From the IMG/VR virus record IMGVR_UViG_3300032327_000996, positions 1 to 31,091 of that record: a stretch of 31,091 bases of DNA; one strand, 5' to 3'. Under the pieces are notes generated by a model that searched no databases, had not been told where the DNA came from, and saw nothing but the letters and a program-made list of their open reading frames with translations. This document shows, one piece after another, positions 834 through 30,191 of this stretch (position 1 is the first letter of the stretch; every line of letters starts with the position of its first letter). The position numbers and the translations under genes were made by a program. The stretch is from a virus (taxonomy: Duplodnaviria > Caudoviricetes).

Positions 834-910
834 TGGAGTAGGTGACAGGGGTCGAACCTGCATAAAACGGATTTGCAATCCGTAGCCTAACCATTCAGCG
901 ACACACCTAC
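834..910 (-). tRNA. tRNA-Cys(GCA)
   Basis: Acceptor GTAGGTG/CACCTAC, anticodon arm ACGGA-TTGCAAA-TCCGT, GGTTCGA T-loop, encoded CCA. Confidence 0.95.
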
Positions 911-914
911 ATAT

Positions 915-1122
915 TGCTCTGCATCCCTCGGCGGTAATTATATCGCATCAATCATCGGACTAGACGAATAATCCACGACAACATCACACACGACTTCCAC
1001 CCGCTTCCCGACAGGGACCGTTATCGCATTGCTAGCGGCCTTTCGGTTCAAAGACTACCACCCGTAACTATCACGTTACTTCTCATCCTGTGGGTCACAG
1101 TATCTGTTGATTAGACAGAACG
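915..1122 (-). ncRNA. Candidate ~208-nt structured ncRNA of unknown family
   Basis: GC-richer ORF-less spacer between tRNAs; terminal pairing GTTCTG/CAGAGC; hairpins CTGTG/CACAG, GTAAC/GTTAC and CC-GAAA-GG. Confidence 0.55.
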
Positions 1123-1126
1123 TTTT

Positions 1127-1214
1127 TGGCGGAGCATGTAGGAATCGAACCTACTCACCTCTTTCGAAATGATGGATTAGCAATCCATTGCCTTAACCGG
1201 TCGGCCAATGCTCC
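1127..1214 (-). tRNA. tRNA-Ser(GCU)
   Basis: Acceptor GGAGCAT/ATGCTCC, ATGGA-TTGCTAA-TCCAT, long variable arm, G73, CCA. Confidence 0.95.
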
Positions 1215-1228
1215 TGATAAATATACAA

Positions 1229-1750
1229 ATGCAACACAATTTCTTTTATAAAAAAATAGGCAACATATCAACTGAATTACTTTGCGGTATGCAAAGTGAT
1301 ACATTATTTAGAACATACAGTTCATGTGTAGATTTTCCACCTAATGTATTGACCATTAGTAATTCTATAAATTCTACATTACTCATTAAATTATTTAATG
1401 AATTATCCTGTTTATTTAAACGTAATGGTCATATTAGTACTAACTATGCTAAAATGTATCCTATGAGTTATTTAAAAGAACATAGCGACCTTTCATCATA
1501 TGAAAAAGAATCATCAATTCATTCTACTATGATAAAATTGCAAATCCCTATCATAACAAATGAAAAAATAGGAATGATGTGGGCTCCGACTCCTAATGAG
1601 TCTACTCTTGTTAACTTTGATATAGGTGGAATTTATATCATAGATAATGTAAGAATGCATTCTGTAGTAAATCTAAGTAATGAATACCGATATAATTTAA
1701 CTTCACGATTTCATATTGATTCGTTACTAGATAAATCTTTACTAGATTAG
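1229..1750 (+). CDS. Asp/Asn beta-hydroxylase-like 2OG-Fe(II)/cupin oxygenase
   Basis: HSD...LQIPIITN...IDNVRMHSVVN...R gives HxD...H...R; ATG 1229 lies 5 nt after TAAATA, whereas the 1208 start overlaps a tRNA. Confidence 0.75.
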   Translation: MQHNFFYKKIGNISTELLCGMQSDTLFRTYSSCVDFPPNVLTISNSINSTLLIKLFNELSCLFKRNGHISTNYAKMYPMSYLKEHSDLSSYEKESSIHSTMIKLQIPIITNEKIGMMWAPTPNESTLVNFDIGGIYIIDNVRMHSVVNLSNEYRYNLTSRFHIDSLLDKSLLD

Positions 1751-1827
1751 TGGTGCCTCCACCTGGACTCGAACCAGGAACTTTTCCATTATGAGTGGAA
1801 TACTCTAACCAGTTGAGTTATAGAGGC
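1751..1827 (-). tRNA. tRNA with CAU anticodon (Ile2 or elongator Met)
   Basis: TTCCA-CTCATAA-TGGAA; G1-C72 pair; lacks the initiator 3xG-C anticodon stem; CCA. Confidence 0.9.
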
Positions 1828-2474
1828 AATTTATAAGTATTTTTATTGATACTTATTATATCTTGTTTTTGAACAGTTATCAACTGTTTCGGGAACTGTG
1901 TCCATTTTGCGGTGTCTCTTTCTGTTTTATATCCCTTAACTTCTACATATGAGTTTAAGTCCGGCAAATAAAAATCAGGAAAATATGTCCTATTACCATT
2001 CCACTCATATTTGAAACCCGGTCCATCATAACGGACACACTTAACATTATTTAATTTACACCATTTGTAAAAAACAAGTTCCCAAGAACCTTGAAATTTG
2101 ATACCATCAAAAATGAGTTGTTTAGTACGTCCTCTATTGGAGGAGGTGTATGATTCTGGATGATTCTCTACTGCATTTTTCATAATAGTAGAATGTCTCA
2201 TCTTTCGTTCATCTGACCATACTTGTAGTTTTCCTGCCTGTGAAAGTTTTTTACTTGTCTTTTTAGAAATCTTAAAATCAGGTATAGACCATTGATTTTT
2301 TACGTCTTTAATAATCTCACCTGTCTTTACTTTTTTCATATATTCGGACAAATTTTTTGCACCAGACAAATAACTCAAATCTATTTTGCTTGGATTATTT
2401 GCACAACGAATTAAATGCTGTGCTTGAGCATTTTTTGTATTGAATTCACGGTTACAATATATACAGGTAAACAT
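1818..2474 (-). CDS. Zn-finger plus PD-(D/E)XK putative homing endonuclease
   Basis: N-terminal CxxC..H..C; C-terminal GSWE...TYFPDFYLP...VEVKG; own TAAATA and AGGAG; the stop codon lies inside the tRNA 5' end. Confidence 0.75.
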   Translation of the reverse strand: MFTCIYCNREFNTKNAQAQHLIRCANNPSKIDLSYLSGAKNLSEYMKKVKTGEIIKDVKNQWSIPDFKISKKTSKKLSQAGKLQVWSDERKMRHSTIMKNAVENHPESYTSSNRGRTKQLIFDGIKFQGSWELVFYKWCKLNNVKCVRYDGPGFKYEWNGNRTYFPDFYLPDLNSYVEVKGYKTERDTAKWTQFPKQLITVQKQDIISINKNTYKLPL

Positions 2475-2523
2475 AATAACTCCTATAATATATTTATGCC
2501 TAGAGTCGCCTGTTCTAACCGTT

Positions 2524-2598
2524 TGGTGCGCCCACTTGGAATTGAACCAAGACTCGGTGGTTTATGAGACCACTGCTTTACCATTAAGCTATAAGCGC
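2524..2598 (-). tRNA. tRNA with CAU anticodon (Ile2 or elongator Met)
   Basis: GCGCTTA/TGGGCGC, GTGGT-CTCATAA-ACCAC, GGTTCAA, CCA. Confidence 0.9.
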
Positions 2599-2605
2599 AT
2601 ATACT

Positions 2606-2690
2606 TGGTACGACTGGCCGGAATCGAACCGGCACGCTGTTGGGCGAGAGATTTTAAGTCTCTTGTGTCTACCTATTTCACCACAGTCGC
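2606..2690 (-). tRNA. tRNA-Leu(UAA)
   Basis: AGAGA-CTTAAAA-TCTCT, long variable arm, CCA. Confidence 0.95.
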
Positions 2691-2703
2691 AAATCTTGTT
2701 ACT

Positions 2704-2732
2704 ATTATATATCAAATAGTCTTTATTGTCAA
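2704..2732 (-). promoter_or_regulatory. Consensus sigma70 promoter
   Basis: TTGACA-N17-TATAAT just upstream of tRNA-Leu. Confidence 0.85.
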
Positions 2733-2737
2733 ATGAA

Positions 2738-2949
2738 TTTGTAAGTAGTATCACCATCGTTATTGATACCATTCACCCATGTATATAAAGCCGGCTGGGA
2801 CTCGGTACGTTACTTGAGATTCATCCAGTATGTCCACCATTTGGAACTGACACCTTTCGAGTGCCGGGGATTCGAACCCCTTACCTTTTACTGCTTTGGT
2901 CCTTCGAAGTAACCTAGACAGCGTGACTTCACTTGCTAACACTTACAAA
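2738..2949 (-). ncRNA. Candidate ~210-nt ncRNA with an internal T-arm-like hairpin
   Basis: Perfect 9-bp terminal stem TTTGTAAGT/ACTTACAAA; GGGG-TTCGAAT-CCCC at 2866-2880; no cloverleaf. Confidence 0.6.
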
Positions 2950-2952
2950 ACT

Positions 2953-3026
2953 TGGCATCCCCTCAAGGACTCGAACCTTGACCAACGGTTTTGGAGACCG
3001 GTATGCTGCCATTACACTAAGGAGAT
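2953..3026 (-). tRNA. tRNA-Trp(CCA)
   Basis: CCGGT-CTCCAAA-ACCGT, G73, CCA. Confidence 0.93.
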
Positions 3027-3033
3027 ATAAATT

Positions 3034-3110
3034 TGGCGCACCGTAGGGGACTCGAACCCCTGGCCTCCTGCGTGACAGGCAGGCGATCTAACCAACTGAG
3101 CTAACGGTGC
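3034..3110 (-). tRNA. tRNA-Asp(GUC)
   Basis: CCTGC-CTGTCAC-GCAGG, G73, CCA. Confidence 0.96.
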
Positions 3111-3175
3111 AAAAATTAATTAAGAGCCTGTAGACTTAACTACAATTTACCGGTTTCAAGACGAACTCTTAAACT

Positions 3176-3262
3176 TGGTGGAGACGACTGGAGTCGAACC
3201 AGTAGTGCCTTTCGAGCGGCGGATTTACAGTCCACTGGGGTTACCAATTTTCCTACATCTCC
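3176..3262 (-). tRNA. tRNA-Tyr(GUA)
   Basis: GTGGA-CTGTAAA-TCCGC, long variable arm, CCA. Confidence 0.95.
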
Positions 3263-3272
3263 AAAAACGATC

Positions 3273-3352
3273 TGAGGCCATGCGAGCTCATCTGCATGCT
3301 TAGGCTTTTTGTCTTCTCCTGCCCGGGCAGTTACGACGGTAGCGTCACCTCA
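3273..3352 (-). ncRNA. Candidate 80-nt three-hairpin small RNA
   Basis: Terminal TGAGGT/GCCTCA with hairpins GACG/CGTC, CTGC/GCAG and ATGC/GCAT. Confidence 0.45.
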
Positions 3353-3361
3353 AAAACTAAC

Positions 3362-3423
3362 TACAGGACGCCCGGGAGTTCTACGGGTCGTTTAAGAATA
3401 CGCTTCGCAGCTACTCTCCTATA
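3362..3423 (-). ncRNA. Candidate 62-nt small RNA
   Basis: Terminal TATAGGA/TCCTGTA stem, GC-rich interior containing CCCGGG. Confidence 0.35.
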
Positions 3424-3428
3424 AAACT

Positions 3429-3503
3429 TGGTAGAGCTACGCGGAATCGAACCGCGCTTGCCTGGATGAAAACCAGATGTCCTAACCGATAGACGATAGC
3501 TCC
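3429..3503 (-). tRNA. tRNA-Glu(UUC)
   Basis: TCTGG-TTTTCAT-CCAGG; CGTCTA...GGAC D-arm typical of Glu; CCA. Confidence 0.94.
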
Positions 3504-3504
3504 A

Positions 3505-3608
3505 CTATATGAAAACACACTAGTGAAATTGCACTACCCCAGTTTCACGCTGGGTTACCAGTAGTTACAGAGGCATTGTCCTCCTGCAAATAATGTGTTT
3601 ACATATAG
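3505..3608 (-). ncRNA. AAACAC/GTGTGTTT long-stem element, copy 1
   Basis: CTATATGTAAACACAT pairs with GTGTGTTTTCATATAG and encloses inner hairpins. Confidence 0.55.
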
Positions 3609-3643
3609 AGCCCTGAACTTAACAGGGATATATGAATATTAAA

Positions 3644-3654
3644 TTTTAAAGAAC
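3644..3654 (-). promoter_or_regulatory. boxA-like Nus antitermination site
   Basis: GTTCTTTAAAA matches GYTCTTTAANA, about 35 nt downstream of the expected start of the proximal tandem promoter. Confidence 0.6.
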
Positions 3655-3693
3655 TGTTTTGCAACTGACTCTATCGTTTGTTGCTATGTGTCT

Positions 3694-3803
3694 ATTATAA
3701 CACCGTTTGAATTAATTGTCAAATTCTTTTTGTATCTTTGTGTCCAAGAACTTGTTCAATCAATCTATAACTAGAGTATAACAGATTGGAGATTTGTTGT
3801 CAA
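3694..3803 (-). promoter_or_regulatory. Tandem sigma70 promoters
   Basis: TTGACA-N17-TATACT (3803-3775) and TTGACA-N17-TATAAT (3722-3694). Confidence 0.85.
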
Positions 3804-3858
3804 ATTTTGCTAATGTAATACTTAGTACTATATAAAATGTTTAATGATAAATATTGTT

Positions 3859-4440
3859 ATGGAACAACACACCTTATACGATGATTTAGAATTACCAAAA
3901 AATTGTACGTTTGAAGAAATCAAACAAAAATACAGAATACTGGCACAAATTCATCATCCTGATAAGGGCGGTGATGTAGAAAAATTCAAAAAAATTAAAT
4001 TAGCATATGAAGTATTAAGTGATGTAACCAAACGTGAACATTATGATTCAACAGGTGATCACTATAATGATAATAATCTTAACACCGAAGTGTTTGGTAG
4101 GCTTAACGTAATGTTAGTACAATTTATACCACAGATTAATCCAGAATTTGATGATTTAATTTTAAGAATGAAAGTTGAAATACGTGCATTACAAGATCAA
4201 ACTACTAATTCCATTACTGAGTGTAATAATTCAATTAATAAATTAACTATCATTACTAAGAAAATTAAATTAAAAAAAGAAGGTGAAAATTTATTAAAAT
4301 CTTTTGCCGAAAAGAAAATTAAACAACAGCAGGCTGAATTGATTAATTTTAAAAGAGGTTTAATAGTTTTTGCAAGAATGCTAGAAGTATTAGAAGATTA
4401 TCATTATAGTAATGATGAATGGCAACTACTTATTCAATAA
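3859..4440 (+). CDS. J-domain (DnaJ-like) co-chaperone
   Basis: LYDDLEL...EIKQKYR...HHPDKGG...AYEVLSD...R..YD followed by a helical tail; ATG 3859 lies 5 nt after TAAATA. Confidence 0.9.
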   Translation: MEQHTLYDDLELPKNCTFEEIKQKYRILAQIHHPDKGGDVEKFKKIKLAYEVLSDVTKREHYDSTGDHYNDNNLNTEVFGRLNVMLVQFIPQINPEFDDLILRMKVEIRALQDQTTNSITECNNSINKLTIITKKIKLKKEGENLLKSFAEKKIKQQQAELINFKRGLIVFARMLEVLEDYHYSNDEWQLLIQ

Positions 4441-4515
4441 TGGTCCGGGGTACAGGAATCGAACCTGTATTGACTGCTTAGAAGGCAGATATTCTATCCA
4501 TTGAATTAACCCCAG
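4441..4515 (-). tRNA. tRNA-Arg(UCU)
   Basis: CTGC-CTTCTAA-GCAG, A20 in the D-loop, CCA. Confidence 0.93.
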
Positions 4516-4536
4516 ATAAATTTTTAACTTGCCCCT

Positions 4537-4565
4537 ATTGTAGCAGGATTTTTATTTATTGTCAA
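4537..4565 (-). promoter_or_regulatory. sigma70 promoter
   Basis: TTGACA-N17-TACAAT upstream of tRNA-Arg(UCU). Confidence 0.75.
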
Positions 4566-5119
4566 CCTACAGTATTACGATCTCGTAGAATTTTATTCCG
4601 TCTCTTGTAGATGGCGGCATTTGAAATGCCTAGCATATCTTCTAATTCAGAGATACCATGTTTGCTCATTAAGTCAATAAGGTCAATATTGTCCCAATCA
4701 ACTTTCCTACGGTTTGTAGTTGCACAAGTAGGAGAACAAAAACTATTTGTTATAGGTTTGTCACCCTTACACACCGGGCATAAATCGTACTCTTGTACTT
4801 TTCTGAATGCAGTATATTCTTCATCAAATACTGCATATTGCTTTGGGAGTTCTCTAGCTCCGGCATGAATTTCACTATGGCAATTATGACATACTAAAAT
4901 ACATTTTTTTAATTCTTCTATTACAGCCTCCCATTTTTTAGGATTTGCTCTAAGTGAGTCAAATGCTAATTCTTTAATAGTAGGATCAATGTGGTGGAAT
5001 GCTAATGCTTGCTGACATTTATCATATCCACAACACTGACATTTACCTCCCATTGCGGAAACCATTCTTTCTTTAGAACGGTGTCTCCATGCTTTAACTC
5101 TGTTTGATGATATTGACAT
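4562..5119 (-). CDS. HNH endonuclease with extra Zn-binding and HTH-like C-terminus
   Basis: GGKCQCCG...FHHIDP...CILVCHNCHSEIH; CPVC...CSPTC. Confidence 0.85.
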   Translation of the reverse strand: MSISSNRVKAWRHRSKERMVSAMGGKCQCCGYDKCQQALAFHHIDPTIKELAFDSLRANPKKWEAVIEELKKCILVCHNCHSEIHAGARELPKQYAVFDEEYTAFRKVQEYDLCPVCKGDKPITNSFCSPTCATTNRRKVDWDNIDLIDLMSKHGISELEDMLGISNAAIYKRRNKILRDRNTVG

Positions 5120-5175
5120 ATATAACCTCTAACCTTCACATTTATTTATGCCAGGTTGAGGTTATAGTTAGAATT

Positions 5176-5254
5176 TGGCTCCGAATGTGAGATTCGAACT
5201 CACCTAACCAGTGATTAACAGTCACGCCCATGCACCTAGCTCGGGTTTTTCGGA
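5176..5254 (-). tRNA. tRNA-Asn(GUU) with atypical D-arm
   Basis: GTGA-CTGTTAA-TCAC, U1-A72, G73, CCA; enlarged D-loop. Confidence 0.85.
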
Positions 5255-5261
5255 ATAAATC

Positions 5262-5337
<76 letters not shown>

Positions 5338-5429
5338 TAATCCAACTGTGACCTTACGCTCTTTCCGTTGGCGATTGAGCAGCCGACATTCTTAAAGTCA
5401 TCTCGGAACTGACTTCTTTATTTAACTGA

Positions 5430-5458
5430 AGTATATCACAACAAAACTTTTTTGTCAA
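5430..5458 (-). promoter_or_regulatory. sigma70 promoter
   Basis: TTGACA-N17-TATACT. Confidence 0.75.
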
Positions 5459-5474
5459 GCGATATTGTGATATT

Positions 5475-6035
5475 TTAGGACAACAAAATTCTACTGTGCT
5501 TAGGAACGCCCGCAAGCAAGTATTCCATTTGATCAGCTAGAATTGTTCTATGTTGAAGGATCATATTTTCATAGTGATTAGGTGCGTACGGTGTGTATAA
5601 CAATTCCATACGTGCTTCTTTCAATGTTTTATGACCTTTACGACTGTTACAATCTCTACATGAAGTAACTACGTTCATCCAGGTGTTTTCTCCACCTTTG
5701 CTTTTTGGATGAATGTGGTCACGGCTTAATGCGTGATAGTTGGCAAAATATTCACCACAGTACGCACATACATGACGATCACGACCAAACAAGGTTTTGT
5801 TTGTTAGTGCAACATTTGCATGTTTGTATGGATTAAATCCATGACCTTTGATTGCAATAATACTGGTGGTTTCTAAATAACTTAATGTACCATCATTTTG
5901 AATGCCACCTCTATATCTAGCCACAATATCACCCATTGACCATGCAATGGCATTTTTTGCTTGATAGACAATTGCATCATCATATGATATCCATTGTCTC
6001 GGAACTCCTGATATATCTAGTGCTAGTACTGCCAT
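5475..6035 (-). CDS. HNH endonuclease (McrA-like)
   Basis: LFGRDRHVCAYCG...SRDHIHPKSKGG..TWMNVVTSCRDCNSRKG; AAGGAG SD. Confidence 0.92.
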   Translation of the reverse strand: MAVLALDISGVPRQWISYDDAIVYQAKNAIAWSMGDIVARYRGGIQNDGTLSYLETTSIIAIKGHGFNPYKHANVALTNKTLFGRDRHVCAYCGEYFANYHALSRDHIHPKSKGGENTWMNVVTSCRDCNSRKGHKTLKEARMELLYTPYAPNHYENMILQHRTILADQMEYLLAGVPKHSRILLS

Positions 6036-6080
6036 GTAAAACTCCTTTGTTGGTAGTCACTAATTGTATTTAATCTATTT

Positions 6081-6155
6081 TGGCGGGCCTTGCAGGAATC
6101 GAACCCACATCACCAAGTTCGAAGCATGGCATTCTATCCATTGAACTAAAGGCCC
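6081..6155 (-). tRNA. tRNA-Arg(UCG)
   Basis: CCATG-CTTCGAA-CTTGG (one stem mismatch), A20, CCA. Confidence 0.88.
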
Positions 6156-6163
6156 GTGTTAGT

Positions 6164-6192
6164 ATTATACGACAAACACTGTTATTTGTCAA
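6164..6192 (-). promoter_or_regulatory. Consensus sigma70 promoter
   Basis: TTGACA-N17-TATAAT immediately upstream of tRNA-Arg(UCG). Confidence 0.8.
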
Positions 6193-6194
6193 TT

Positions 6195-6270
6195 TGGTGC
6201 CAAAGACTGGGATCGAACCAGTGACACACGGATTTTCAATCCGCTGCTCTACCATCTGAGCTACATTGGC
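6195..6270 (-). tRNA. tRNA-Phe(GAA)
   Basis: GCGGA-TTGAAAA-TCCGT, CCA. Confidence 0.95.
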
Positions 6271-6272
6271 TT

Positions 6273-6347
6273 TGGTGGATGATAGTGGGGTCGAACCACT
6301 GACCTCTTCGATGTCAACAAAGTATTCTACCGCTGAAATAATCATCC
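6273..6347 (-). tRNA. tRNA-Val(GAC)
   Basis: CTTTG-TTGACAT-CGAAG, CCA. Confidence 0.93.
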
Positions 6348-6354
6348 AATTTAT

Positions 6355-6428
6355 TGGTGCTCAAACGTAGAATCGAACTACGATATCTGTCATACCAAGA
6401 CAGTGTTCTTCCATTAAACTATATGAGC
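6355..6428 (-). tRNA. tRNA-Thr(GGU)
   Basis: CTGTC-TTGGTAT-GACAG, CCA. Confidence 0.93.
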
Positions 6429-6430
6429 AA

Positions 6431-6580
6431 AGGCGGGAGCCTAACTATCTTATTGTTAATAAGCCTCATTAGATTGTCTCGTATAGGCAAGTTTATACAC
6501 CCATCAATCATACTATAGTGTCATCACAGTTAACCCCACTGTGACTAGATTGACAGGGACTCAAACCTATCGTCTATCCC
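6431..6580 (-). ncRNA. Candidate ~150-nt ncRNA with a 5' T-arm-like hairpin
   Basis: GGGA...TCCC ends; GATAGG-TTTGAGTC-CCTGTC; GTCACAGT/ACTGTGAT hairpin. Confidence 0.5.
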
Positions 6581-6585
6581 ATAAC

Positions 6586-6661
6586 TGGCACCCCCTGATG
6601 GACTCGAACCACCGCATGCGGGAATCAAAATCCCGAGCCTTACCAACTTGGCGAAGAGGGT
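6586..6661 (-). tRNA. tRNA-Gln(UUG)
   Basis: CGGGA-TTTTGAT-TCCCG, G73, CCA. Confidence 0.93.
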
Positions 6662-6669
6662 ATAAATTG

Positions 6670-6743
6670 TGGTACCCAGTACAGGTTACGATCCTGTGTC
6701 TCACCCTTATCAGGGGTGTGTTATACCATTTAACTAACCGGGC
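6670..6743 (-). tRNA. tRNA-Ile(GAU) with atypical T-loop
   Basis: CACCC-CTGATAA-GGGTG; T-arm ACAGG-ATCGTAA-CCTGT; CCA. Confidence 0.9.
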
Positions 6744-6748
6744 ATACT

Positions 6749-6824
6749 TGGTAGTGATGGTCGGACTCGAACCGACGATAAACTCCGTATGAAGGAGGTA
6801 CATTAGCCGCTATGCTACATCACT
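6749..6824 (-). tRNA. tRNA-Met(CAU), probably elongator
   Basis: CTCC-TTCATAC-GGAG; paired A1-U72; CCA. Confidence 0.88.
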
Positions 6825-6829
6825 ATAAT

Positions 6830-6905
6830 TGGGGAGTCGTACGGGAATCGAACCCGTATTAACGGAATCACAATCCGTGGTGTTAACCGTTACACTAACA
6901 ACTCC
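6830..6905 (-). tRNA. tRNA-His(GUG)
   Basis: ACGGA-TTGTGAT-TCCGT; encoded G-1:C73; CCA. Confidence 0.95.
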
Positions 6906-6911
6906 ATATAT

Positions 6912-7002
6912 TGGCGGAAGGCTAGAGAGTCGAACTCTAAAGGCGCTATTAACGCTCGGCTGTTTTCAAGACAGATCCCATCGCCAGTTGGGTTGGCCTT
7001 CC
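6912..7002 (-). tRNA. tRNA-Ser(UGA)
   Basis: CTGT-CTTGAAA-ACAG, long variable arm, G73, CCA. Confidence 0.94.
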
Positions 7003-7004
7003 AT

Positions 7005-7097
7005 TTAACTTTTTGTATCAATATTTTGACTCTTATCTAGATAAGAGTCAATTAGACCTTTGTATGTGTATGTTACACATTCATAAAAAACTTTATT
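7005..7097. repeat. 93-bp direct repeat, copy 1 (3' remnant of ORF 7781-7963)
   Basis: Matches 7781-7873 with one mismatch; contains a perfect 26-bp palindrome at 7026-7051. Confidence 0.9.
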
Positions 7098-7150
7098 TAG
7101 TAACACTAGTGTTCTCTCATTAATATATTTTTCATCAAGCTAAATAGTTA

Positions 7151-7714
7151 ATGACTATTTACTATGCACATCTAAATTTACTAGACATAGACCCAATCAT
7201 TGGAGATAAAAATAAGTTAATGAAAAATTATCAATCACTGATTGATAACAATGATTTAAATCCTAAACTTATTGATATTATGGACAACGTGGGTATTAAA
7301 ATACCGCGTGCCGAGTCATTCTATTCTAAACCATTTTATCTTCAACAAATCCATACTGACAATTTAGGCGGAGACTATATTAAATTAAATTACGTTTATA
7401 GTGGATTCAATAGTACTATGAGCTGGTACTCTGTAAAAGATAGTCAACATAAATTAGATATTCGCTACACACCTGACTTACATACCGAGTTTATTCACTT
7501 TAAATACCATGATGTTGAACTGGTAGATCGTGTTAAAATAGGAGCACGTTCTACTTTAGTACAAGTAGGGTGCCCGCATAGTATAACAAACGGCAATGAA
7601 TATAGGTTATGTGTGTCACTTATTTTAATAGATAAAAATACCGGTGCCCGACTATCAATGTCTGATGCAGTTAATAGATTGTCACAGTATATCGGACAAA
7701 TTGGTGCTCCATGA
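7151..7714 (+). CDS. Cupin/2OG-Fe(II) oxygenase-like phage protein
   Basis: QIHTD...KLNYVY...LVQVGCPHSITN...RLCVSL; TAAATA 4 nt upstream. Confidence 0.65.
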   Translation: MTIYYAHLNLLDIDPIIGDKNKLMKNYQSLIDNNDLNPKLIDIMDNVGIKIPRAESFYSKPFYLQQIHTDNLGGDYIKLNYVYSGFNSTMSWYSVKDSQHKLDIRYTPDLHTEFIHFKYHDVELVDRVKIGARSTLVQVGCPHSITNGNEYRLCVSLILIDKNTGARLSMSDAVNRLSQYIGQIGAP

Positions 7715-7779
7715 CAGAATCGAACCGAGAACACTTTTCCTTTTGAGAAAAGCGACTTTGCCAATTTGTCCACAAAGGC
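7702..7779 (-). pseudogene. Chimeric tRNA-Leu(CAA) with a foreign 3' end
   Basis: Leu-like 5' half and CTCAAAA loop, but acceptor GCCTTTG/ATGGAGC and T-stem CTCGG/CTGTC pair poorly. Confidence 0.7.
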
Positions 7780-7780
7780 A

Positions 7781-7873
7781 TTAACTTTTTGTATCAATAT
7801 TTTGACCCTTATCTAGATAAGAGTCAATTAGACCTTTGTATGTGTATGTTACACATTCATAAAAAACTTTATT
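7781..7873. repeat. 93-bp direct repeat, copy 2
   Basis: Matches 7005-7097 with one mismatch. Confidence 0.9.
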
Positions 7874-7963
7874 AGTTTTTGGGTCTTGTACCTGTGTATA
7901 TACATCAGTGCGGACATTATCACGCACATTAGACACTAATCGTTGTATAGATTGAATTATCAT
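7781..7963 (-). CDS. Small hypothetical protein (60 aa)
   Basis: TAAATA 4 nt upstream of the ATG; its 3' half is duplicated at 7005-7097. Confidence 0.6.
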   Translation of the reverse strand: MIIQSIQRLVSNVRDNVRTDVYTQVQDPKTNKVFYECVTYTYKGLIDSYLDKGQNIDTKS

Positions 7964-7979
7964 GATGTATTTATTACTA

Positions 7980-8075
7980 TACCATATAGAAACACACTTG
8001 TTTGGATTCGAACCTTGTTCTAGTATTGTCTATCTGCGCTTCCCACAGTGCTGACAAGAGTGTTTTTATATGGTA
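7980..8075 (-). ncRNA. AAACAC/GTGTGTTT long-stem element, copy 2 (contains GGTTCGAATCC)
   Basis: TACCATATAAAAACACTCTTGT pairs with ACAAGTGTGTTTCTATATGGTA. Confidence 0.6.
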
Positions 8076-8144
8076 GGGGTGCTCGGGAACGATCCGAGTT
8101 TTACTGGTTAAAAGCCAGTTACTTCACCTTAAAGTTTCACCCCC
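8071..8144 (-). tRNA. tRNA-Lys(UUU) with atypical T-loop
   Basis: ACTGG-CTTTTAA-CCAGT; T-arm CTCGG-ATCGTTC-CCGAG; CCA. Confidence 0.88.
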
Positions 8145-8203
8145 ATAAGTCGTATGTTTGATTTTATGTGCCAATCATAGACCTACGGGAGTCTATGACG
8201 ACA

Positions 8204-8224
8204 CTATCGCTTACTGCGCTTCAT
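8204..8224 (-). CDS. Mini-ORF MKRSKR(amber) followed by a hairpin
   Basis: Own promoter, AAGGAA SD, ATG, TAG stop, then stem TCATAGAC/GTCTATGA (8168-8204). Confidence 0.5.
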   Translation of the reverse strand: MKRSKR

Positions 8225-8243
8225 ATCGTTTCCTTAAAAATGT

Positions 8244-8272
8244 ATTGTAACAGACAATTTAATTATTGTCAA
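8244..8272 (-). promoter_or_regulatory. sigma70 promoter
   Basis: TTGACA-N17-TACAAT. Confidence 0.75.
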
Positions 8273-8276
8273 ATTT

Positions 8277-8353
8277 TGGTGCGACCTAAGAGATTCGAAC
8301 TCCTGACCCCTTGGTTCGTAGCCAAGTACTCTATCCAACTGAGCTAAGGTCGC
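8277..8353 (-). tRNA. tRNA-Arg(ACG)
   Basis: CTTGG-CTACGAA-CCAAG, A20, CCA; first tRNA of the array in transcription order. Confidence 0.96.
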
Positions 8354-8431: not shown

Positions 8432-8448
8432 CGTGTATTATTACACGA

Positions 8449-8571
8449 CATGATAGGGTTGATACCCTACCCAGTGATTTTACAATCTATGTTACCGCCA
8501 CAGATTTCATCCTACTGTCCGCCCGTTTGTTACACTTATGCGCTGTATGCCGGCCCTCGTTGCCTATCACG
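8449..8571 (-). ncRNA. Candidate ~123-nt structured ncRNA
   Basis: Terminal CGTGATAGG/CCTATCATG; inner AATCTGTG/CATAGATT hairpin; GC-rich. Confidence 0.45.
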
Positions 8572-8576
8572 CACTA

Positions 8577-8747
8577 TCAACTTTCTTTAACTAAAGTTTT
8601 CACTTTGTTAATAGACCGTTGATAGATTTTTGCACGTTCAATCTTGTTACGGATCAATTGTGCGACTTGTTCTTTTGATAATTCATGATTGCTAAACCAA
8701 TCACGTTTGTCATCAGAAGAAGTTTTGTATTCTATTTTTTTGTCCAT
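8577..8747 (-). CDS. Small basic protein (56 aa, MDKKIEYKTSSDDKRDWFSN...), first ORF after the attenuator
   Basis: Open frame ATG 8747 to TGA 8577 translated by hand; below the ORF-track cutoff; weak SD. Confidence 0.55.
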   Translation of the reverse strand: MDKKIEYKTSSDDKRDWFSNHELSKEQVAQLIRNKIERAKIYQRSINKVKTLVKES

Positions 8748-8784
8748 TTATTGTCAAATTTCCCTTTGTTGTTTTTAAACAACA
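8729..8784 (-). promoter_or_regulatory. sigma70 promoter with an upstream palindrome
   Basis: TTGACA-N17-TAGAAT (8757-8729); TGTTG-N8-CAACA at 8767-8784. Confidence 0.6.
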
Positions 8785-8785
8785 C

Positions 8786-8827
8786 AAAAACAAAAACCCC
8801 TGAGACTTTTTAGTTTCCCAGGGGTTT
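8786..8827 (-). terminator. Intrinsic terminator (attenuator terminator)
   Basis: 12-bp stem AAACCCCTGGGA/TCTCAGGGGTTT followed by TTGTTTTTG. Confidence 0.85.
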
Positions 8828-8888
8828 CTTAGATTTGTTAGAGTAGTTACTTAAGTATAACTTTCTCCTTCTATGAAACTCCCCGGAA
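8816..8888 (-). promoter_or_regulatory. Antiterminator hairpin, mutually exclusive with the terminator
   Basis: TTCCGGGGAGTTTCATAG (8888-8871) pairs with CTAAGAAACCCCTGGGA (8832-8816), about 16 bp; the leader stop codon sits at the apex. Confidence 0.7.
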
Positions 8889-9024
8889 TTTTCGCATCAT
8901 AATTAAATTCTGAACTGCGAATACTCGGTGTGGACATGTTACCCCCAAAGGCCAACACTGGTGTCAAAGAGGCTATCTGCCACTGACCCGTATGTTTTAG
9001 CGATTGAATGCAAATGCTTTTCAT
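8851..9024 (-). CDS. Putative attenuator leader peptide (57 aa) containing all 20 amino acids
   Basis: MKSICIQSLKHTGQWQ...ESYT; 36 distinct codons; TAAATA at 9033-9038; alternative in-frame GTG start at 9081. Confidence 0.65.
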   Translation of the reverse strand: MKSICIQSLKHTGQWQIASLTPVLAFGGNMSTPSIRSSEFNYDAKIPGSFIEGESYT

Positions 9025-9101
9025 AGTAAATCTATTTAGTCCTGGTTGTAAATTAATGCAAATAACTATTGTTTTTTGCACCTTTTCTCAATTCATGCTG
9101 A

Positions 9102-17900: not shown

Positions 17901-18206
17901 TTATTCATCAATATTTTTTGGTAAACCGTTACTGTGTTTATCTGTTACTTTTTCGGTATCTTGGAACAAACGTTTCTCTTGCGCTGTAAGTTTGTCTTTA
18001 TGTGTCTTGCGAGGATTTCCGCACATCAGACACCCTGGTTGTCCGCAATCCATAGCGTGATGCTTTGCTAAACGATGTGGTTCTTTGATTGCTTTGTCTT
18101 TGTTAGTTAAACCATGCGCTTTTGCAATCTTAACTTGTCTTGCAACTGCTACAAGATTTTTATGGCGGCGGCGACTGTTAATAAATTTTGCTGTATCATT
18201 AGCCAT
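17901..18206 (-). CDS. Basic hypothetical protein with a Cys cluster
   Basis: DCGQPGCLMCGNPR. Confidence 0.7.
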   Translation of the reverse strand: MANDTAKFINSRRRHKNLVAVARQVKIAKAHGLTNKDKAIKEPHRLAKHHAMDCGQPGCLMCGNPRKTHKDKLTAQEKRLFQDTEKVTDKHSNGLPKNIDE

Positions 18207-18586
18207 TACTGTCTCTTTCTATAATCTTCTACTGCGGCTTTGATGGCGTCTTCGGCAAGGATTGAGCAATGGATTTTGACCGGGGGGAGTGCAAGTTCCT
18301 CTGCGATTTGACTGTTTCGGAGCTTGGAAGCTTCGTCAAGTGTTTTCCCCTTGACCCATTCAGTGACAAGACTTGAGCTAGCAATAGCCGACCCGCACCC
18401 ATATGTTTTAAATTTGGCATCTGTTATTAATCCTGTTAGTTTATCTACTTTTATTTGCAATTTCATTACATCACCGCATGCAGGGGCTCCTACCATTCCC
18501 GTACCCACATCATTGTCGTCTTTTGCAAAACTACCCACGTTGCGTGGGTTTTCATAATGGTCAACTACTGCGGCTGAATATGCCAT
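18206..18586 (-). CDS. iscU: Fe-S cluster scaffold IscU
   Basis: DHYENPRNVG, GAPACGD, YGCGSAIASSS, LPPVKIHCS. Confidence 0.98.
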   Translation of the reverse strand: MAYSAAVVDHYENPRNVGSFAKDDNDVGTGMVGAPACGDVMKLQIKVDKLTGLITDAKFKTYGCGSAIASSSLVTEWVKGKTLDEASKLRNSQIAEELALPPVKIHCSILAEDAIKAAVEDYRKRQ

Positions 18587-18589
18587 ATA

Positions 18590-18706
18590 TCAATCCTTTT
18601 TAAACATAGTGAAGATTTTTGCTTGAATGTTTTTTGCAAACTGTGGTTGAGGGAAATTCCAACCAATAAATGCACCTAATGCTAACCAAAATAATGTTTC
18701 CAACAT
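18590..18706 (-). CDS. Small membrane protein (38 aa, MLETLFWLALGAFIGWNFPQP...)
   Basis: AAGGAG SD, TAAATA upstream, one hydrophobic helix; not in the ORF track. Confidence 0.7.
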   Translation of the reverse strand: MLETLFWLALGAFIGWNFPQPQFAKNIQAKIFTMFKKD

Positions 18707-18733
18707 AATCAATACTCCTTATATGTATTGTAT

Positions 18734-19300
18734 TTAGTATGCCTCGTCCGCATTGTCAATAACTATCCAGCCTAATTTTAATAAATCAGCACGAATCTCG
18801 TCAGTAACTACACTTTCATTTACAAAGTTGTTTTTTATGTATAAGTAGTTTTCTTGTTGCTCTTTAGTCATGTCGTTGTATTCTTCATCGGATACTTCGC
18901 CCTTGATACCTGAACAGTACCAATCGATGTAGTCGCCCTTCTCAATCATATTAGCTACTATACCACCGGCACTGCGCCAACTAGCACTCCAACGCTTTTC
19001 TGTTAGTATAGGAATAACATCGTTTTTAGTAAAGTCATTGTTACATATAGCGGCATAAAGATTCTGTGCGTATGCTTCACTTTGTTTAGCTTTATCACAA
19101 ATCCATTTAGCAGACCGAAGGTCATACTCCATGTTGTATGCTTTCCACTCATCAGTAGCTTCTAGATCACGCTGGCGCTCGTCCCATGACTTAAAAAACT
19201 CAATCATATTTTCTGCTGATTCCGCAGACTGGTCGCCTTGCTCTACACGCTTTAATTGATTTTCTATTTGAAAAGTTCCGCGTTCTGGGCTACTATTCAT
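18734..19300 (-). CDS. Hypothetical phage protein
   Basis: Operonic ORF; YAQNLYAAICNN, SWRSAGG and YIDWYCSG stretches; function unknown. Confidence 0.8.
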   Translation of the reverse strand: MNSSPERGTFQIENQLKRVEQGDQSAESAENMIEFFKSWDERQRDLEATDEWKAYNMEYDLRSAKWICDKAKQSEAYAQNLYAAICNNDFTKNDVIPILTEKRWSASWRSAGGIVANMIEKGDYIDWYCSGIKGEVSDEEYNDMTKEQQENYLYIKNNFVNESVVTDEIRADLLKLGWIVIDNADEAY

Positions 19301-19769
19301 CTTCTACCTCTATCCATGTGTGATCGCCTAACCATTTAACTTTACACAAATATTCATATTCAGTGGGAGCACTACTAGACCAATCATTGGGTCCATTAAT
19401 GCTCAACCTAGTAAATTGTTTTCTATGGTCGTACAACAACCAATATATACTACCATTTGATAACTGAAAGTCGTATTTGGCTGCATGTACCATGTCAGTC
19501 AAATCAAGTCTATGCTTAATTTGCTCCGCTTGCTTTTGTAAAACATTCACTAGTTCCATGATTCTATCATATTCTTGCTTGGCATGCAACCTAGCAACGT
19601 TCAACATGATATCTTTATGCTTCTCTACCGGCACTAAATCAAATTTGGGTCCGCCCGATTCTGTCGCATATGGTGTTACATTGCGATTAAAAAAGTGGAT
19701 TAGCGAACCACTAGACGTAGAATCGTAACTACTTCTACCGTTCGCTGAGTTTAGTTTGTCATCAGACAT
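19293..19769 (-). CDS. Hypothetical protein (DUF2452-like)
   Basis: TPYATESGGPKF, coiled coil, GDHTW C-terminus; family assignment from recall only. Confidence 0.6.
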   Translation of the reverse strand: MSDDKLNSANGRSSYDSTSSGSLIHFFNRNVTPYATESGGPKFDLVPVEKHKDIMLNVARLHAKQEYDRIMELVNVLQKQAEQIKHRLDLTDMVHAAKYDFQLSNGSIYWLLYDHRKQFTRLSINGPNDWSSSAPTEYEYLCKVKWLGDHTWIEVEDE

Positions 19770-20869
19770 TAAAACAAATCAATTTTTTCCCAGGGCAGAT
19801 TAGATTTACCAAAATGCCCATAGTTAGTAGTTGTATGATATATTGGTCTAAACAAATTGAATCGTTCAATGATGCCTTTAGGTGTCAAATCAACATTGTC
19901 TTGTATCCATTTAGTTAAAGTGCGGGCTTGCGTAATATCTGCCGTTTCAATATAGAAACTCATAGGCTGTGCTAATCCAATAGCATAACTAATCTGACAT
20001 GTTGCCCAATCTGCTTTACCACTAGCGACAATGTTTTTGGCAATATAACGCATCATGTATGCGGCCGATCGATCCACTTTCGTAGGGTCTTTACCACTGA
20101 ACGCACCGCCGCCATGGGGACTATAACCGCCATAAGTATCAACAATAATTTTACGGCCAGTAAGACCAGTATCGCCGTCAGGGCCACCGATAACAAATCT
20201 ACCAGTAGGGTTGATAAAAAATTCAGTATCATTGTCAATATATTGTTTAGGTAACAATTCTCTAATTACTTGCTCTACTAACTCACGAACCAAATCGATA
20301 CTAGCATTTTCTACATGTTGAGTAGAACATACAACTTTGGCAATACGCTTAGGAGTACCATCATCATTGTATTCAAATGTCACTTGACTCTTTGCATCCG
20401 GGCCTAATATTGACAGACTGCCGTTTTTTCTAAGTTCTGTTAATCGTTCAACAATACGATGGCTCCAATAAATTGCGCTAGGCATATGATTTTCAGTTTC
20501 GTTACATGCATAACCAAACATTAATCCTTGATCGCCGGCGCCAAAGTTGTCTGTACCTAGTGCAATATCTGCGCTTTGACCATGTAGTAAGTTTGTGATT
20601 TCAACTGTACGCCAATCAAAACCAGATTGTTCATAACCAATATCTTTGATAATCTTGCGTACAGCACTATCAATTTCTTCATTGTGGAGAACACCTTTGT
20701 ATTCTCCGGCAACAACAACACGATTAGTAGTAACTAATGTTTCACAGGCACAACGCATTGCACTGTCTTCTTTTGCCATTACTAAATCTAGTACACTATC
20801 ACTTATTGCATCAGCAATTTTATCCGGGTGTCCCTCAGACACCGATTCACTTGTAAATAAATAACTCAT
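19769..20869 (-). CDS. metK: S-adenosylmethionine synthetase
   Basis: FTSESVSEGHPDK, GAGDQG, GGGAFSGKD. Confidence 0.99.
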   Translation of the reverse strand: MSYLFTSESVSEGHPDKIADAISDSVLDLVMAKEDSAMRCACETLVTTNRVVVAGEYKGVLHNEEIDSAVRKIIKDIGYEQSGFDWRTVEITNLLHGQSADIALGTDNFGAGDQGLMFGYACNETENHMPSAIYWSHRIVERLTELRKNGSLSILGPDAKSQVTFEYNDDGTPKRIAKVVCSTQHVENASIDLVRELVEQVIRELLPKQYIDNDTEFFINPTGRFVIGGPDGDTGLTGRKIIVDTYGGYSPHGGGAFSGKDPTKVDRSAAYMMRYIAKNIVASGKADWATCQISYAIGLAQPMSFYIETADITQARTLTKWIQDNVDLTPKGIIERFNLFRPIYHTTTNYGHFGKSNLPWEKIDLF

Positions 20870-25109: not shown

Positions 25110-25403
25110 TTATCCTAATACGATTTTCTTATCTGGTATTTTAATACCAGTTGTTGCTTCAATATATTTCATTTTTATACTGTCTTCAGTATCAGCATAA
25201 AAAGCAATACTATTAGTATTTATTGTTACGTTTCCTTTAGGTTCTGCAGTAAACAAACTAGGAATCATTTGCATTCCTTGTTGAGTTGGTGCAATACTAA
25301 CTGGTTCTGTGACAATTACATTGTCACGGGTTATTTCAATTATCTTAGCGATAAGTTCTTCACCACTATTTAATTTTAGTGTATATATTTTTCCGTTTTC
25401 CAT
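25110..25403 (-). CDS. Hypothetical protein, Sm-like fold plausible
   Basis: TLKLNSGEELIAK...YIEATTGI. Confidence 0.7.
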   Translation of the reverse strand: MENGKIYTLKLNSGEELIAKIIEITRDNVIVTEPVSIAPTQQGMQMIPSLFTAEPKGNVTINTNSIAFYADTEDSIKMKYIEATTGIKIPDKKIVLG

Positions 25404-25633
25404 TATTTGCTTTCTGTTAATTTTTGTTTAAGTTCAGTGAACCCACCAATTAGTACGCCATCTAAAATGATTTGCGGTACTGTTCGTGCTGTCGGGATTG
25501 CTTCAAGCAATTCTTCTTTGGTATATCCATCTCCGATCTTACGTTCTTCAAATTGTATACCTTTACTTGTTAGTAGTGCTTTTGCTTGATCGCAGTAGGG
25601 ACAATGATACTTACTCCATACGATTGCTGTCAT
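25403..25633 (-). CDS. Glutaredoxin
   Basis: CPYC, RTVPQI, IGGF. Confidence 0.97.
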   Translation of the reverse strand: MTAIVWSKYHCPYCDQAKALLTSKGIQFEERKIGDGYTKEELLEAIPTARTVPQIILDGVLIGGFTELKQKLTESK

Positions 25634-25644
25634 TTTATTTTCCT

Positions 25645-26745
25645 TTAAATATTCGGTAATTCATCATAGTCAAGTAAATCTGACATAACTCCTATAACAT
25701 AGTTTGTTGATTCAGTTTCTTGCAGTGCTGATTGTTTTTTACTGGTATCAGTATGTTTGTTAAACCACGGGATAGGAGTGCTTTTTGGGGCAGTTGCTTG
25801 ATACTTAATACCAATTTCTTTCAGTGCTCCGACCGCAGTGTAGTCTACAAAGTCTTTTAATACTGTTGCGTTCAGTCCAATAACTGGGCCCATTTTAAAC
25901 AAATAGTCTGCCCACTCTTTTTCTTCACGGATAACATCCATGTATAGATTATACACTTCTTGGTCGCATTCTGCTTTGATTTCGGCAAATCTAGAGTCTT
26001 CTTTAACTACTTGATTAATTAAATAAGCAGTCCAGCCTTTATGTAGCAATTCATCTTGAAGAATTAAACTGATAATGTTGCCATTGCCAATAAAGATTTT
26101 GTTCTCAACCATTGCTAAACTTGTAGCAAAACTTACCATAAATCTAAATGCTTCTAATGCGTAACTAGCATGTAATGCCATGTATATTGCTTTGATGTGT
26201 TCTTTTTCTGGAACATTTTCTCCCATCTCTTTACGACAATTAACTTTATGTAATTCATCATAATATCTTCCAACACTACTTGCCATATCTACAATCTCTT
26301 TTGTATCATGTATAGTATTGAATACTTCCTTAGGTACGTTATAGATGTTTCGAATGATGTGACTGTAACTACGACTATGAATATTAGTTTCAAAGAAACT
26401 CCAATTATACATCAATGCCTCTAACTCTGGTAGTGAAACACAAGGAGTAAACACTTGCGCTGGGCCGCGTCCTTGCAAGCTATCAAGTGCTGTTTGTCTT
26501 AACACATTACTAGTGAAAATGTGTTTAACTGCATCGCTGGCATCTTTAAAGTCATTTGCATCTTTGGTCAAACTAACTTCTTCTGGAACCCAGAAGAAAC
26601 CACGTGCCGTTGTTTCGAAGTTCGCAATCTTAGTGTACTTGACCTCTTCGAACCTTTGAATTACTACCGGCCCGGCTGGGTCTAAGAACATCTTACGATT
26701 CAAATAATCTGTCTTTGTGTTTAGGTTGTATTGTTGTTTACTCAT
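25645..26745 (-). CDS. nrdB: Class Ia ribonucleotide reductase beta subunit
   Basis: FFWVPEEV, DSLQGR, ETNIHSRSY, LEAFRF, DELLH, QETE..NY. Confidence 0.97.
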   Translation of the reverse strand: MSKQQYNLNTKTDYLNRKMFLDPAGPVVIQRFEEVKYTKIANFETTARGFFWVPEEVSLTKDANDFKDASDAVKHIFTSNVLRQTALDSLQGRGPAQVFTPCVSLPELEALMYNWSFFETNIHSRSYSHIIRNIYNVPKEVFNTIHDTKEIVDMASSVGRYYDELHKVNCRKEMGENVPEKEHIKAIYMALHASYALEAFRFMVSFATSLAMVENKIFIGNGNIISLILQDELLHKGWTAYLINQVVKEDSRFAEIKAECDQEVYNLYMDVIREEKEWADYLFKMGPVIGLNATVLKDFVDYTAVGALKEIGIKYQATAPKSTPIPWFNKHTDTSKKQSALQETESTNYVIGVMSDLLDYDELPNI

Positions 26746-26869
26746 TTGGTTTCTTTCTAAATAATTTTTGTAATTTTTCTGTACGTTCTTGATATTGTTG
26801 TTCGGTTAGGCTACAACTCTTATCACACATGGGCTTACGAGTTGTTCTACCACATACGCATTTGCTCAT
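26738..26869 (-). CDS. 43-aa CDGSH-like mini-protein with a His-to-Cys change
   Basis: MSKCVCGRTTRKPMCDKSCSLTEQQY...; overlaps the nrdB start; AGGA SD; not in the ORF track. Confidence 0.7.
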   Translation of the reverse strand: MSKCVCGRTTRKPMCDKSCSLTEQQYQERTEKLQKLFRKKPNE

Positions 26870-26882
26870 TAATGATTTCCTG

Positions 26883-27518
26883 TTATTCGTCTTTTTCTTC
26901 TATGGTATAAAACCAATCATCTCCTGCACTCCACTTGCGAGTACCATCTACTGTAAATATTGTTTGTGCGGCTTTAAAGTCCGGGAACTTAACATTACCA
27001 GAAATTAAACTTTGATCGTACCATAAACATCTATTGTTAGGCTGACAAGCAAACTGACCATTCTCTAATCTAATAAAATTAAAACTCTTATGCTCTTCCG
27101 CAACCTCAGTAAACCCTGTATCTACATCCATTCCATCAGCGCAAAAATCTACAGTAAACAAATAAGTACCGTGATGCCACTCTTTGTCTTTACCTAGAAA
27201 TTTCACACCTAAATTTCGCAATCCTATTTTTTCAATGATAGTAAAACGATATCCCATACAATCCCAAAGCTGTAATATATCTATAGGTAAATTACCGGTG
27301 TAATCTTCGTTCCACACATAAGCATGAATAGGCAACTTATCATATAGTGCCCCGTAATTGGGTAATAATGATTCTATACGAAATACTTGCCCTCTTAGGG
27401 CTTTGAGACTGACCCATATAGCAGGTTCTAATTCGCCGTGACCTTTTTCAAAGTTATAAAGAAACTCTCGTTTAACAAAACACTTGATTGGCGGTAATGA
27501 TCCTACAATGTAACTCAT
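26883..27518 (-). CDS. Hypothetical protein in the nrd operon
   Basis: Operonic 211-aa ORF; GALYDKLP, QLWDC, EHK and QPNNR stretches; function unknown. Confidence 0.8.
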   Translation of the reverse strand: MSYIVGSLPPIKCFVKREFLYNFEKGHGELEPAIWVSLKALRGQVFRIESLLPNYGALYDKLPIHAYVWNEDYTGNLPIDILQLWDCMGYRFTIIEKIGLRNLGVKFLGKDKEWHHGTYLFTVDFCADGMDVDTGFTEVAEEHKSFNFIRLENGQFACQPNNRCLWYDQSLISGNVKFPDFKAAQTIFTVDGTRKWSAGDDWFYTIEEKDE

Positions 27519-30159: not shown

Positions 30160-30191
30160 ATGATTTCCTCATATGTATTTATGCTTGGTAA

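Follow-up and report, generated by a model that had tools for sequence, protein, structure and literature searches.

The window, i.e. the whole stretch of 31,091 nucleotides analysed here, belongs to a T4-like phage with related records of 330-525 kb. On the minus strand it carries a leader ORF of 57 sense codons (8851..9024) in which every one of the 20 amino acids has appeared by codon 43, an intrinsic terminator with a U-tract (8786..8828), a second small ORF designated ORF2 (8577..8747), a conserved structured RNA element (8433..8584) between ORF2 and the first tRNA, and a tRNA array with interspersed endonuclease genes (834..8353) that is cut by the contig end. ARAGORN found 21 tRNAs at its default threshold and 25 at a relaxed threshold, all downstream of the leader and on the same strand. 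Approximately 24 were plausible, so the 24 tRNAs counted in the initial annotation are matched at the relaxed setting but not at the default one. That annotation had also described the leader as co-oriented with the array, which is correct, and as directly upstream of it, which is not: the small ORF and the structured RNA intervene, and the first tRNA lies 439 nt downstream of the terminator. A same-strand tRNA followed in all 45 near relatives having at least 1 kb of downstream DNA, and a tRNA was present at most 1 kb from the RNA element in 60/70 IMG/VR loci. These observations establish the anatomy of the unit and its place at the head of tRNA arrays.

The tRNA array of the window includes four HNH or other endonuclease genes, each following a TAAATA box (19-591, 1818-2474, 4562-5119 and 5475-6035, minus strand), and is also interrupted by opposite-strand ORFs. 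On either side of the first tRNAs are further stretches that are rich in hairpins but are not tRNAs (8430-8355 and 8055-7990, minus strand), and a repeat of approximately 90 nt occurs twice (7920-7780 and 7100-7005, minus strand). Inside the array, a sigma70-like promoter at 3722 is followed at approximately 3655-3642 (minus strand) by a boxA-like sequence. In the arrays of L260, L263 and L264 a tRNA-Ile with anticodon TAT was found, and several intron-containing tRNAs were called in one subfamily. Host-like metabolic genes are located at 18206-20869 and 25403-31013 (minus strand), encoding IscU, SAM synthetase, glutaredoxin, NrdB and NrdA, the last of which is split by a homing endonuclease gene. 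IscU scored above the TIGR01999 cut-off and was closest to an Acinetobacter-labelled record; together with the sigma70 consensus, this hints at a proteobacterial host.

A recount of the leader ORF (9024-8851, minus strand) agreed with the initial annotation: the twentieth amino acid is reached by codon 43, and 36 distinct codons, among them all six Ser codons, are used; for the G/C-ending codons, described there as frequent, the measured GC3 was 0.40. No codon run for one amino acid was present. When 6443 windows of 57 codons were taken from the genes of the same phage, all 20 amino acids occurred in 6.8% of them, all 20 were reached by codon 43 in 1.4%, at least 36 distinct codons were used in 5.4%, and six Ser codons were found in 0.02%. 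At least 36 distinct codons were also present in 64% of nucleotide-shuffled ORFs. The codon diversity of the window leader was ordinary (z 0.6). Taken singly, the codon statistics of the window leader are mildly unusual, and it is the leader family that is decisive.

The arms of the terminator lie at 8828-8816 and 8805-8793, and it folds with -20.4 kcal/mol. The stem consists of 14 pairs including G-U around a 10-nt loop rather than 12 bp. A small additional hairpin (8784-8767, minus strand) follows right after the U-tract and is present in many near relatives. Codons 46-52 of the leader form the 5' strand of an antiterminator (8871..8888, minus strand), part of which can pair with the start-codon region instead. 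The pairing of 8888-8871 with the terminator 5' arm region was computed at 17 pairs, where approximately 16 bp had been claimed, and the local fold energies of antiterminator and terminator were -27.1 and -20.4 kcal/mol, respectively. The TAA stop of the leader is in the apical loop of the antiterminator hairpin, as had been noted. In 26 long-type sequences the antiterminator was 88% paired and had 6 pairs with changes on both sides; the terminator, also in 26 sequences, was paired in 99% of cells and had 3 such pairs; the antiterminator core of 26 short-type sequences was 92% paired, one pair being G-C in 13 and A-U in 10 of them, all these structures being derived from the tested sequences and hence favoured over slid controls. 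These findings show that two mutually exclusive hairpins both covary, and the conservation of the antiterminator pairing that the initial annotation had called for is seen in the compensatory changes of the long-type set and in the paired core of the short-type set.

The effect of a ribosome footprint on folding depended on the model. In a nascent-RNA model, in which everything 5' of the ribosome was blocked and the footprint was placed at codon -20 or at the stop, the terminator 5' arm was sequestered at codon -20 in 22/22 near and 35/35 distant representatives, whereas no representative showed this at the stop, on a high background for this measure, as the arm was also sequestered in 17/35 when the upstream RNA was shuffled. 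In contrast, when the complete leader was folded at equilibrium the terminator dominated, whether a ribosome was absent (median 1.0) or placed early (median 0.97), and in a queue model at codon -20 it still prevailed in 16/22. The predicted switch appears in the nascent-RNA model and mostly does not in the equilibrium model. Because equilibrium folding favours the terminator, antitermination would have to be kinetic, by co-transcriptional trapping, which is likewise at work in classical attenuators. The last new amino acid of the leader fell within -1 to +4 codons of the modelled switch point in 21/22 representatives, the exception (L020) being mis-folded. The equilibrium dominance of the terminator is partly due to pairing of the start-codon region with the antiterminator. 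This start-codon duplex was significant in 11/22 near compared to 2/34 distant representatives, and was rejected as a general feature; it is clade-specific.

Near relatives were collected in several ways. A peptide search gave 17 loci. A non-coding motif upstream of the ATG gave 119 loci, of which 11 were without the ATG and 14 were cut or failed the length or terminator filters; the remaining 94 loci and the window yielded 66 distinct peptides of 44-58 aa. All 20 amino acids were present in 60/66 of these leaders and at least 19 in 66/66, compared to 3.3 expected to hold 20 from windows of 167 long ORFs in these loci. When 22 representatives below 60% identity were considered, 19 were complete compared to 1.1 expected. 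A profile (HMM) search of 1.84 billion proteins found 57 peptides, of which 43 were complete and 54 contained 19 amino acids or more. After two broken records were dropped, 101/119 pooled peptides and 37/46 pooled representatives, with a median identity of 29%, were complete. A further pattern search found mostly unrelated loci and two new leaders. No credible match was found among isolate phages in the INPHARED collection, and the three pattern matches in GTDB host genomes were all false. Of 20 RNA runs, each holding at most 0.07 of the words, contigs from 8 were compared; the matches were assembled contigs of relatives at approximately 85-90% identity, some of which (X1, X4, X7 and X9) span the leader, the terminator and downstream DNA. 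They were given no weight, because ends, strand and level are invisible in them and they may be DNA.

What the family conserves is amino-acid coverage together with a modest spread over synonymous codons; extreme codon diversity is not the conserved trait. Compared to synonymous shuffles, the number of distinct codons gave a mean z of 1.9 with phage usage and 0.8 with uniform usage. TCA was present in 66/66 and ACA in 65/66 near leaders, and CTY, GTY and CGR codons were mostly missing. The six Ser codons were discarded as a key trait, TCG, TCC and AGC occurring in 28/66, 26/66 and 23/66 near leaders, respectively, and an extreme codon count was discarded as well, being matched by shuffled ORFs and showing only a modest excess in the family. 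The residues that complete the alphabet are mobile. When Cys, His or Trp was gone from its usual position it was present elsewhere in the peptide in 20/26 cases (uncorrected for kinship), and when it was at the usual position a second copy existed in just 7/112. The leader peptide is thus not kept position by position like a normal protein, in line with the initial annotation: these residues relocate yet persist.

Distant relatives were gathered with the downstream RNA element as bait, so that leaders were collected blind to their amino-acid content. From 120 IMG/VR loci, 42 with too little upstream DNA, 4 without a terminator and 4 duplicates were removed, leaving 70 leaders. All 20 amino acids were found in 43/70 (2.2 expected) and at least 19 in 56/70; outside the near clade, 28/53 were complete. 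Among 35 representatives with a median identity of 19% to the window leader, 16 were complete (0.9 expected). Another 120 loci came from metagenomes; after removal of 53 short ones, 24 lacking a terminator, 3 lacking an ORF, 1 duplicate and 2 from the earlier sets, 24 of the 37 new leaders were complete (1.5 expected). Some distant leaders are short (25-35 aa) and contain 14-18 amino acids only. Amino-acid coverage was approximately 15- to 20-fold above expectation in four separately collected, partly overlapping sets, and persisted despite peptide divergence, as had been anticipated. At the level of sequence comparison, these findings establish that the full amino-acid alphabet of the leader is under selection.

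It is very improbable that the ORF simply encodes a small protein of the usual kind, that the terminator after it is constitutive and serves to insulate the tRNA array, and that the alternative pairing is incidental. The dN/dS of the leader is 0.37-0.49, similar to that of ORF2 (0.26-0.43), gene callers list leader peptides, and the terminator is the equilibrium fold, all of which would fit such a protein. Neither the coverage in the four sets, nor the shifting positions of single residues, nor the compensatory changes in the antiterminator agree with it.

The content of the leaders was compared with that of the downstream arrays in 35 arrays, 25 of which were closed, i.e. bounded by 3 kb without tRNA. 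Arrays covering all 20 amino acids were found behind 11/15 complete leaders and 2/10 incomplete leaders. Moreover, 10/14 amino acids absent from a leader were also without a tRNA in its array, compared to 4.6 expected under a uniform model (p 0.0004) or 5.9 under permutation (p 0.008); several of the loci are related and not independent, and tRNAs may sit elsewhere in the genomes. By batch, the match was 8/9 in the first and 2/5, not significant, in the second closed batch. The exceptions were L391, L413, L440, L466, L467, L101 and L429. This match of gaps is suggestive and favours tRNA sensing over amino-acid sensing. A tight match between leader codons and phage anticodons was sought and not seen: Arg-TCG tRNA was present in 10/10 and Val-GAC in 9/10 arrays, and their codon classes were rare in leaders (19/66 and 17/66, respectively).

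A related possibility is that the switch senses general translation trouble, such as starvation, antibiotics, ribosome shortage or an arrest of the S-I-R type, and not the tRNA pool. Leaders that act by nascent-peptide arrest, of the SecM/ApdA type, carry a conserved C-terminal arrest motif. A check for such a motif found the nearly invariant S-I-R stretch conserved in the near clade only; the distant leaders, at approximately 20% identity, share no motif, and an arrest motif would give no selection for movable single Cys, His and Trp residues. Coverage of amino acids is far stronger than that of codons, and a CGY codon is present in 66/66 near and 29/34 distant leaders, as might be expected of a general sensor; the whiB7 and toiL uORFs also respond to broad translation stress (bioRxiv 10.1101/2023.06.02.543512 and PMC12121999). 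On the other hand, the output is tRNA and the gaps of the leaders tend to match missing tRNAs. As a starvation trigger already belongs to the attenuator model preferred here, we consider a general stress sensor an improbable replacement for it.

Two sigma70-like promoters are predicted upstream of the leader on the minus strand: P1 (9199..9227), predicted to be early, with an 11/12 consensus match and a 17-nt spacer, and P2 (9102..9130), with an 11/12 match and a TG extension. At least one such site lies at most 330 nt upstream of the leader in 61/66 near relatives. A TAAATA box (9033..9039, minus strand), 8 nt 5' of the ATG, is likely a T4-type late promoter, and was invariant in 12/12 aligned loci gathered by peptide. 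In leader-family loci, TAAATA was found upstream of 132/332 ORFs; in 75 of these 132 it lies 4-9 nt from the ATG and there is no Shine-Dalgarno site, and in the other 57 it is further off and 45/57 have one. The distribution is bimodal: 66/132 genes have no Shine-Dalgarno site and begin 4-5 nt past the box. Of the near-complete related genomes, 5/5 contain a gp55-like late sigma factor; gp33 (PF16805) was not found in 5 genomes, in a search that had no positive-control match. The box is thus likely a late promoter yielding a nearly leaderless leader mRNA, and its spacing suggests that leaderless late mRNAs may be widespread in these phages.

The initial annotation had cautioned that internal sigma70 promoters could bypass the terminator, and this was justified. 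A sigma70-like promoter with an 11/12 match (8729..8757, minus strand) sits 30 nt past the terminator U-tract of the window, and eight sigma70-like sites are predicted after the terminator, seven of them within the tRNA array, where TAAATA boxes are present as well. The terminator switch therefore cannot be the sole gate in the window, and gating is partial. A promoter between terminator and RNA element was found in 35/47 near relatives, 5/53 distant loci and 3/37 loci of the metagenome set, and the stretch from terminator to tRNAs was promoter-free in 48/53 distant loci. The bypass promoter is a trait of the window's clade and not of the whole leader family, and for most distant relatives no other route into the first tRNA block than past the leader and terminator is predicted.

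ORF2 encodes a conserved 56-aa two-helix protein. It matched no family of PHROGs, Pfam or NCBIfam, a PDB comparison gave nothing credible, and Atlas scores were at most 0.80. Full amino-acid coverage is not a property of ORF2: 19 amino acids were reached in 0/27 and 3/50 sequences and 20 in none. Its ATG is located within the spacer of the internal promoter in the window and in 27/47 near relatives, with the consequence that ORF2 would be made only from read-through RNA. This arrangement, the purifying selection on ORF2, its presence in 50/70 loci of the wider IMG/VR set and the eight internal promoters of the window raise the possibility that the attenuator is real but that its practical target in the window's clade is ORF2, and perhaps the structured RNA, with internal promoters supplying most of the tRNAs and ORF2 mediating whatever effect the attenuator has on them. 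We regard this as unlikely. ORF2 is missing from 20/70 loci, where the element and tRNAs directly follow the terminator, 2-19 tRNAs precede the first internal promoter in 9/10 distant arrays, and array content is tracked by leader content.

The structured RNA element had compensatory changes in 11/12 consensus pairs (27 sequences) and was present in one copy per array in 5 genomes; approximately 720 IMG/VR stretches are estimated to carry it, and no Rfam family was found. It is composed of a hairpin whose loop is invariant, a G-rich linker that is conserved, and another, nested domain; a possible pseudoknot was noted by eye (window 8584-8433, minus strand; L391-L470). In a 525-kb record (L266; G003 411000-428000), two arrays on opposite strands are each preceded by a leader and the element, which could be a duplication or a chimeric assembly. 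The element is a candidate processive-antitermination or processing signal. The put RNA of phage HK022 (PMC9378689) is comparable in that it, too, acts in cis, has two stem domains and lies close to the 5' end of a long transcript; a put-like identity is not established by this resemblance of descriptions, which is a lead.

Several known systems resemble the leader-terminator unit. Like the trpL, hisL, pheL, thrL, leuL and ilv leaders, it has a leader ORF that overlaps alternative hairpins, and for the near clade a third pairing is predicted that would terminate transcription when the leader is untranslated, as in amino-acid operon leaders. The latter repeat the codons of one amino acid, or of a few, in runs and regulate genes for biosynthetic enzymes; unlike the trp, his and phe types, the phage leader is without a codon run. 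The Rfam His_leader and Phe_leader models scored 19-21 bits, far under their cut-offs of 49 and 55.

The closest precedent is the whiB7 uORF attenuator of mycobacteria (bioRxiv 10.1101/2023.06.02.543512). There, too, a uORF, a terminator and an antiterminator are combined, stalling leads to read-through, and composition sets the starvations that are sensed, stalling and sensing being predictions in the phage. A single Trp codon decides Trp sensing in the whiB7 uORF, which contains 19/20 amino acids in M. smegmatis and lacks several residues in M. tuberculosis (same source). It differs in controlling a cellular transcription factor, whereas the phage unit is viral, has a tRNA array as output and conserves full coverage itself. 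The whiB7 uORF is also Ala-rich (25-40%); Ala makes up 7% of leader codons in the near family, and ORF2 and tRNAs, not whiB7, lie downstream. The toiL uORF of the E. coli topAI-yjhQ operon is described in PMC12121999 as multipurpose, with stalls at different positions triggering one switch; unlike the phage leader it acts through RBS occlusion and Rho, is antibiotic-responsive and controls a toxin-antitoxin pair. Phage tRNAs counter tRNA-cleaving host defences according to PMC10264068, which provides a rationale for replacement tRNAs; that phage tRNA expression is sensed or regulated is not proposed in its abstract. A search of full-text literature, in which subscription papers were mostly outside coverage, found no description of the leader-terminator element, and three motifs were absent from 6 supplementary files of PMC10690425.

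Taken together, the leader-terminator unit is probably a ribosome-coupled transcription attenuator predicted to sense shortage of any charged tRNA. The attenuator proposed in the initial annotation gains from the covariation, the coverage and the peptide divergence; its emphasis on codon diversity is not retained. We infer translation of the leader, stalling, switching and negative feedback by the phage tRNAs as follows. A ribosome would load at or near the 5' end of the leader mRNA and trail the polymerase. If a charged tRNA of almost any kind were scarce, the leading ribosome would stall before approximately codon 41-43, the antiterminator would form first, and the polymerase would continue through ORF2 and the structured RNA to the tRNA array. 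If decoding were fast, the ribosome would cover the antiterminator strand and the terminator would form. Newly made phage tRNAs would relieve the stall. In the window phage early in infection, internal sigma70-like promoters would bypass the gate and supply tRNAs regardless; the gate would add extra tRNA dosage and control of ORF2, and would be most important late, when the TAAATA promoter may drive the leader.

A broader reading is possible, and we put it forward tentatively. A widespread clade of T4-like giant phages may carry an evolved amino-acid pangram that audits the entire tRNA pool of the host and is matched to the tRNAs of each phage; in a closed loop it would switch on a cassette of leader, ORF2, structured RNA and tRNAs against tRNA-cleaving defences, with ORF2 and the structured RNA making the read-through polymerase processive over an array of 5-18 kb.

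The reason for the large tRNA sets of phages is a long-open question. If the attenuator model is true, a sensor for shortage of any tRNA that is wired to the array would favour the view that tRNAs are replaced on demand, rather than carried as a static compensation for codon usage. A cassette of 250 nt would suffice to examine this idea in a laboratory strain, and the cassette would be a ready-made universal reporter of tRNA depletion. The leader would then represent a viral leader-peptide attenuator selected for the completeness of its alphabet and not for its sequence.
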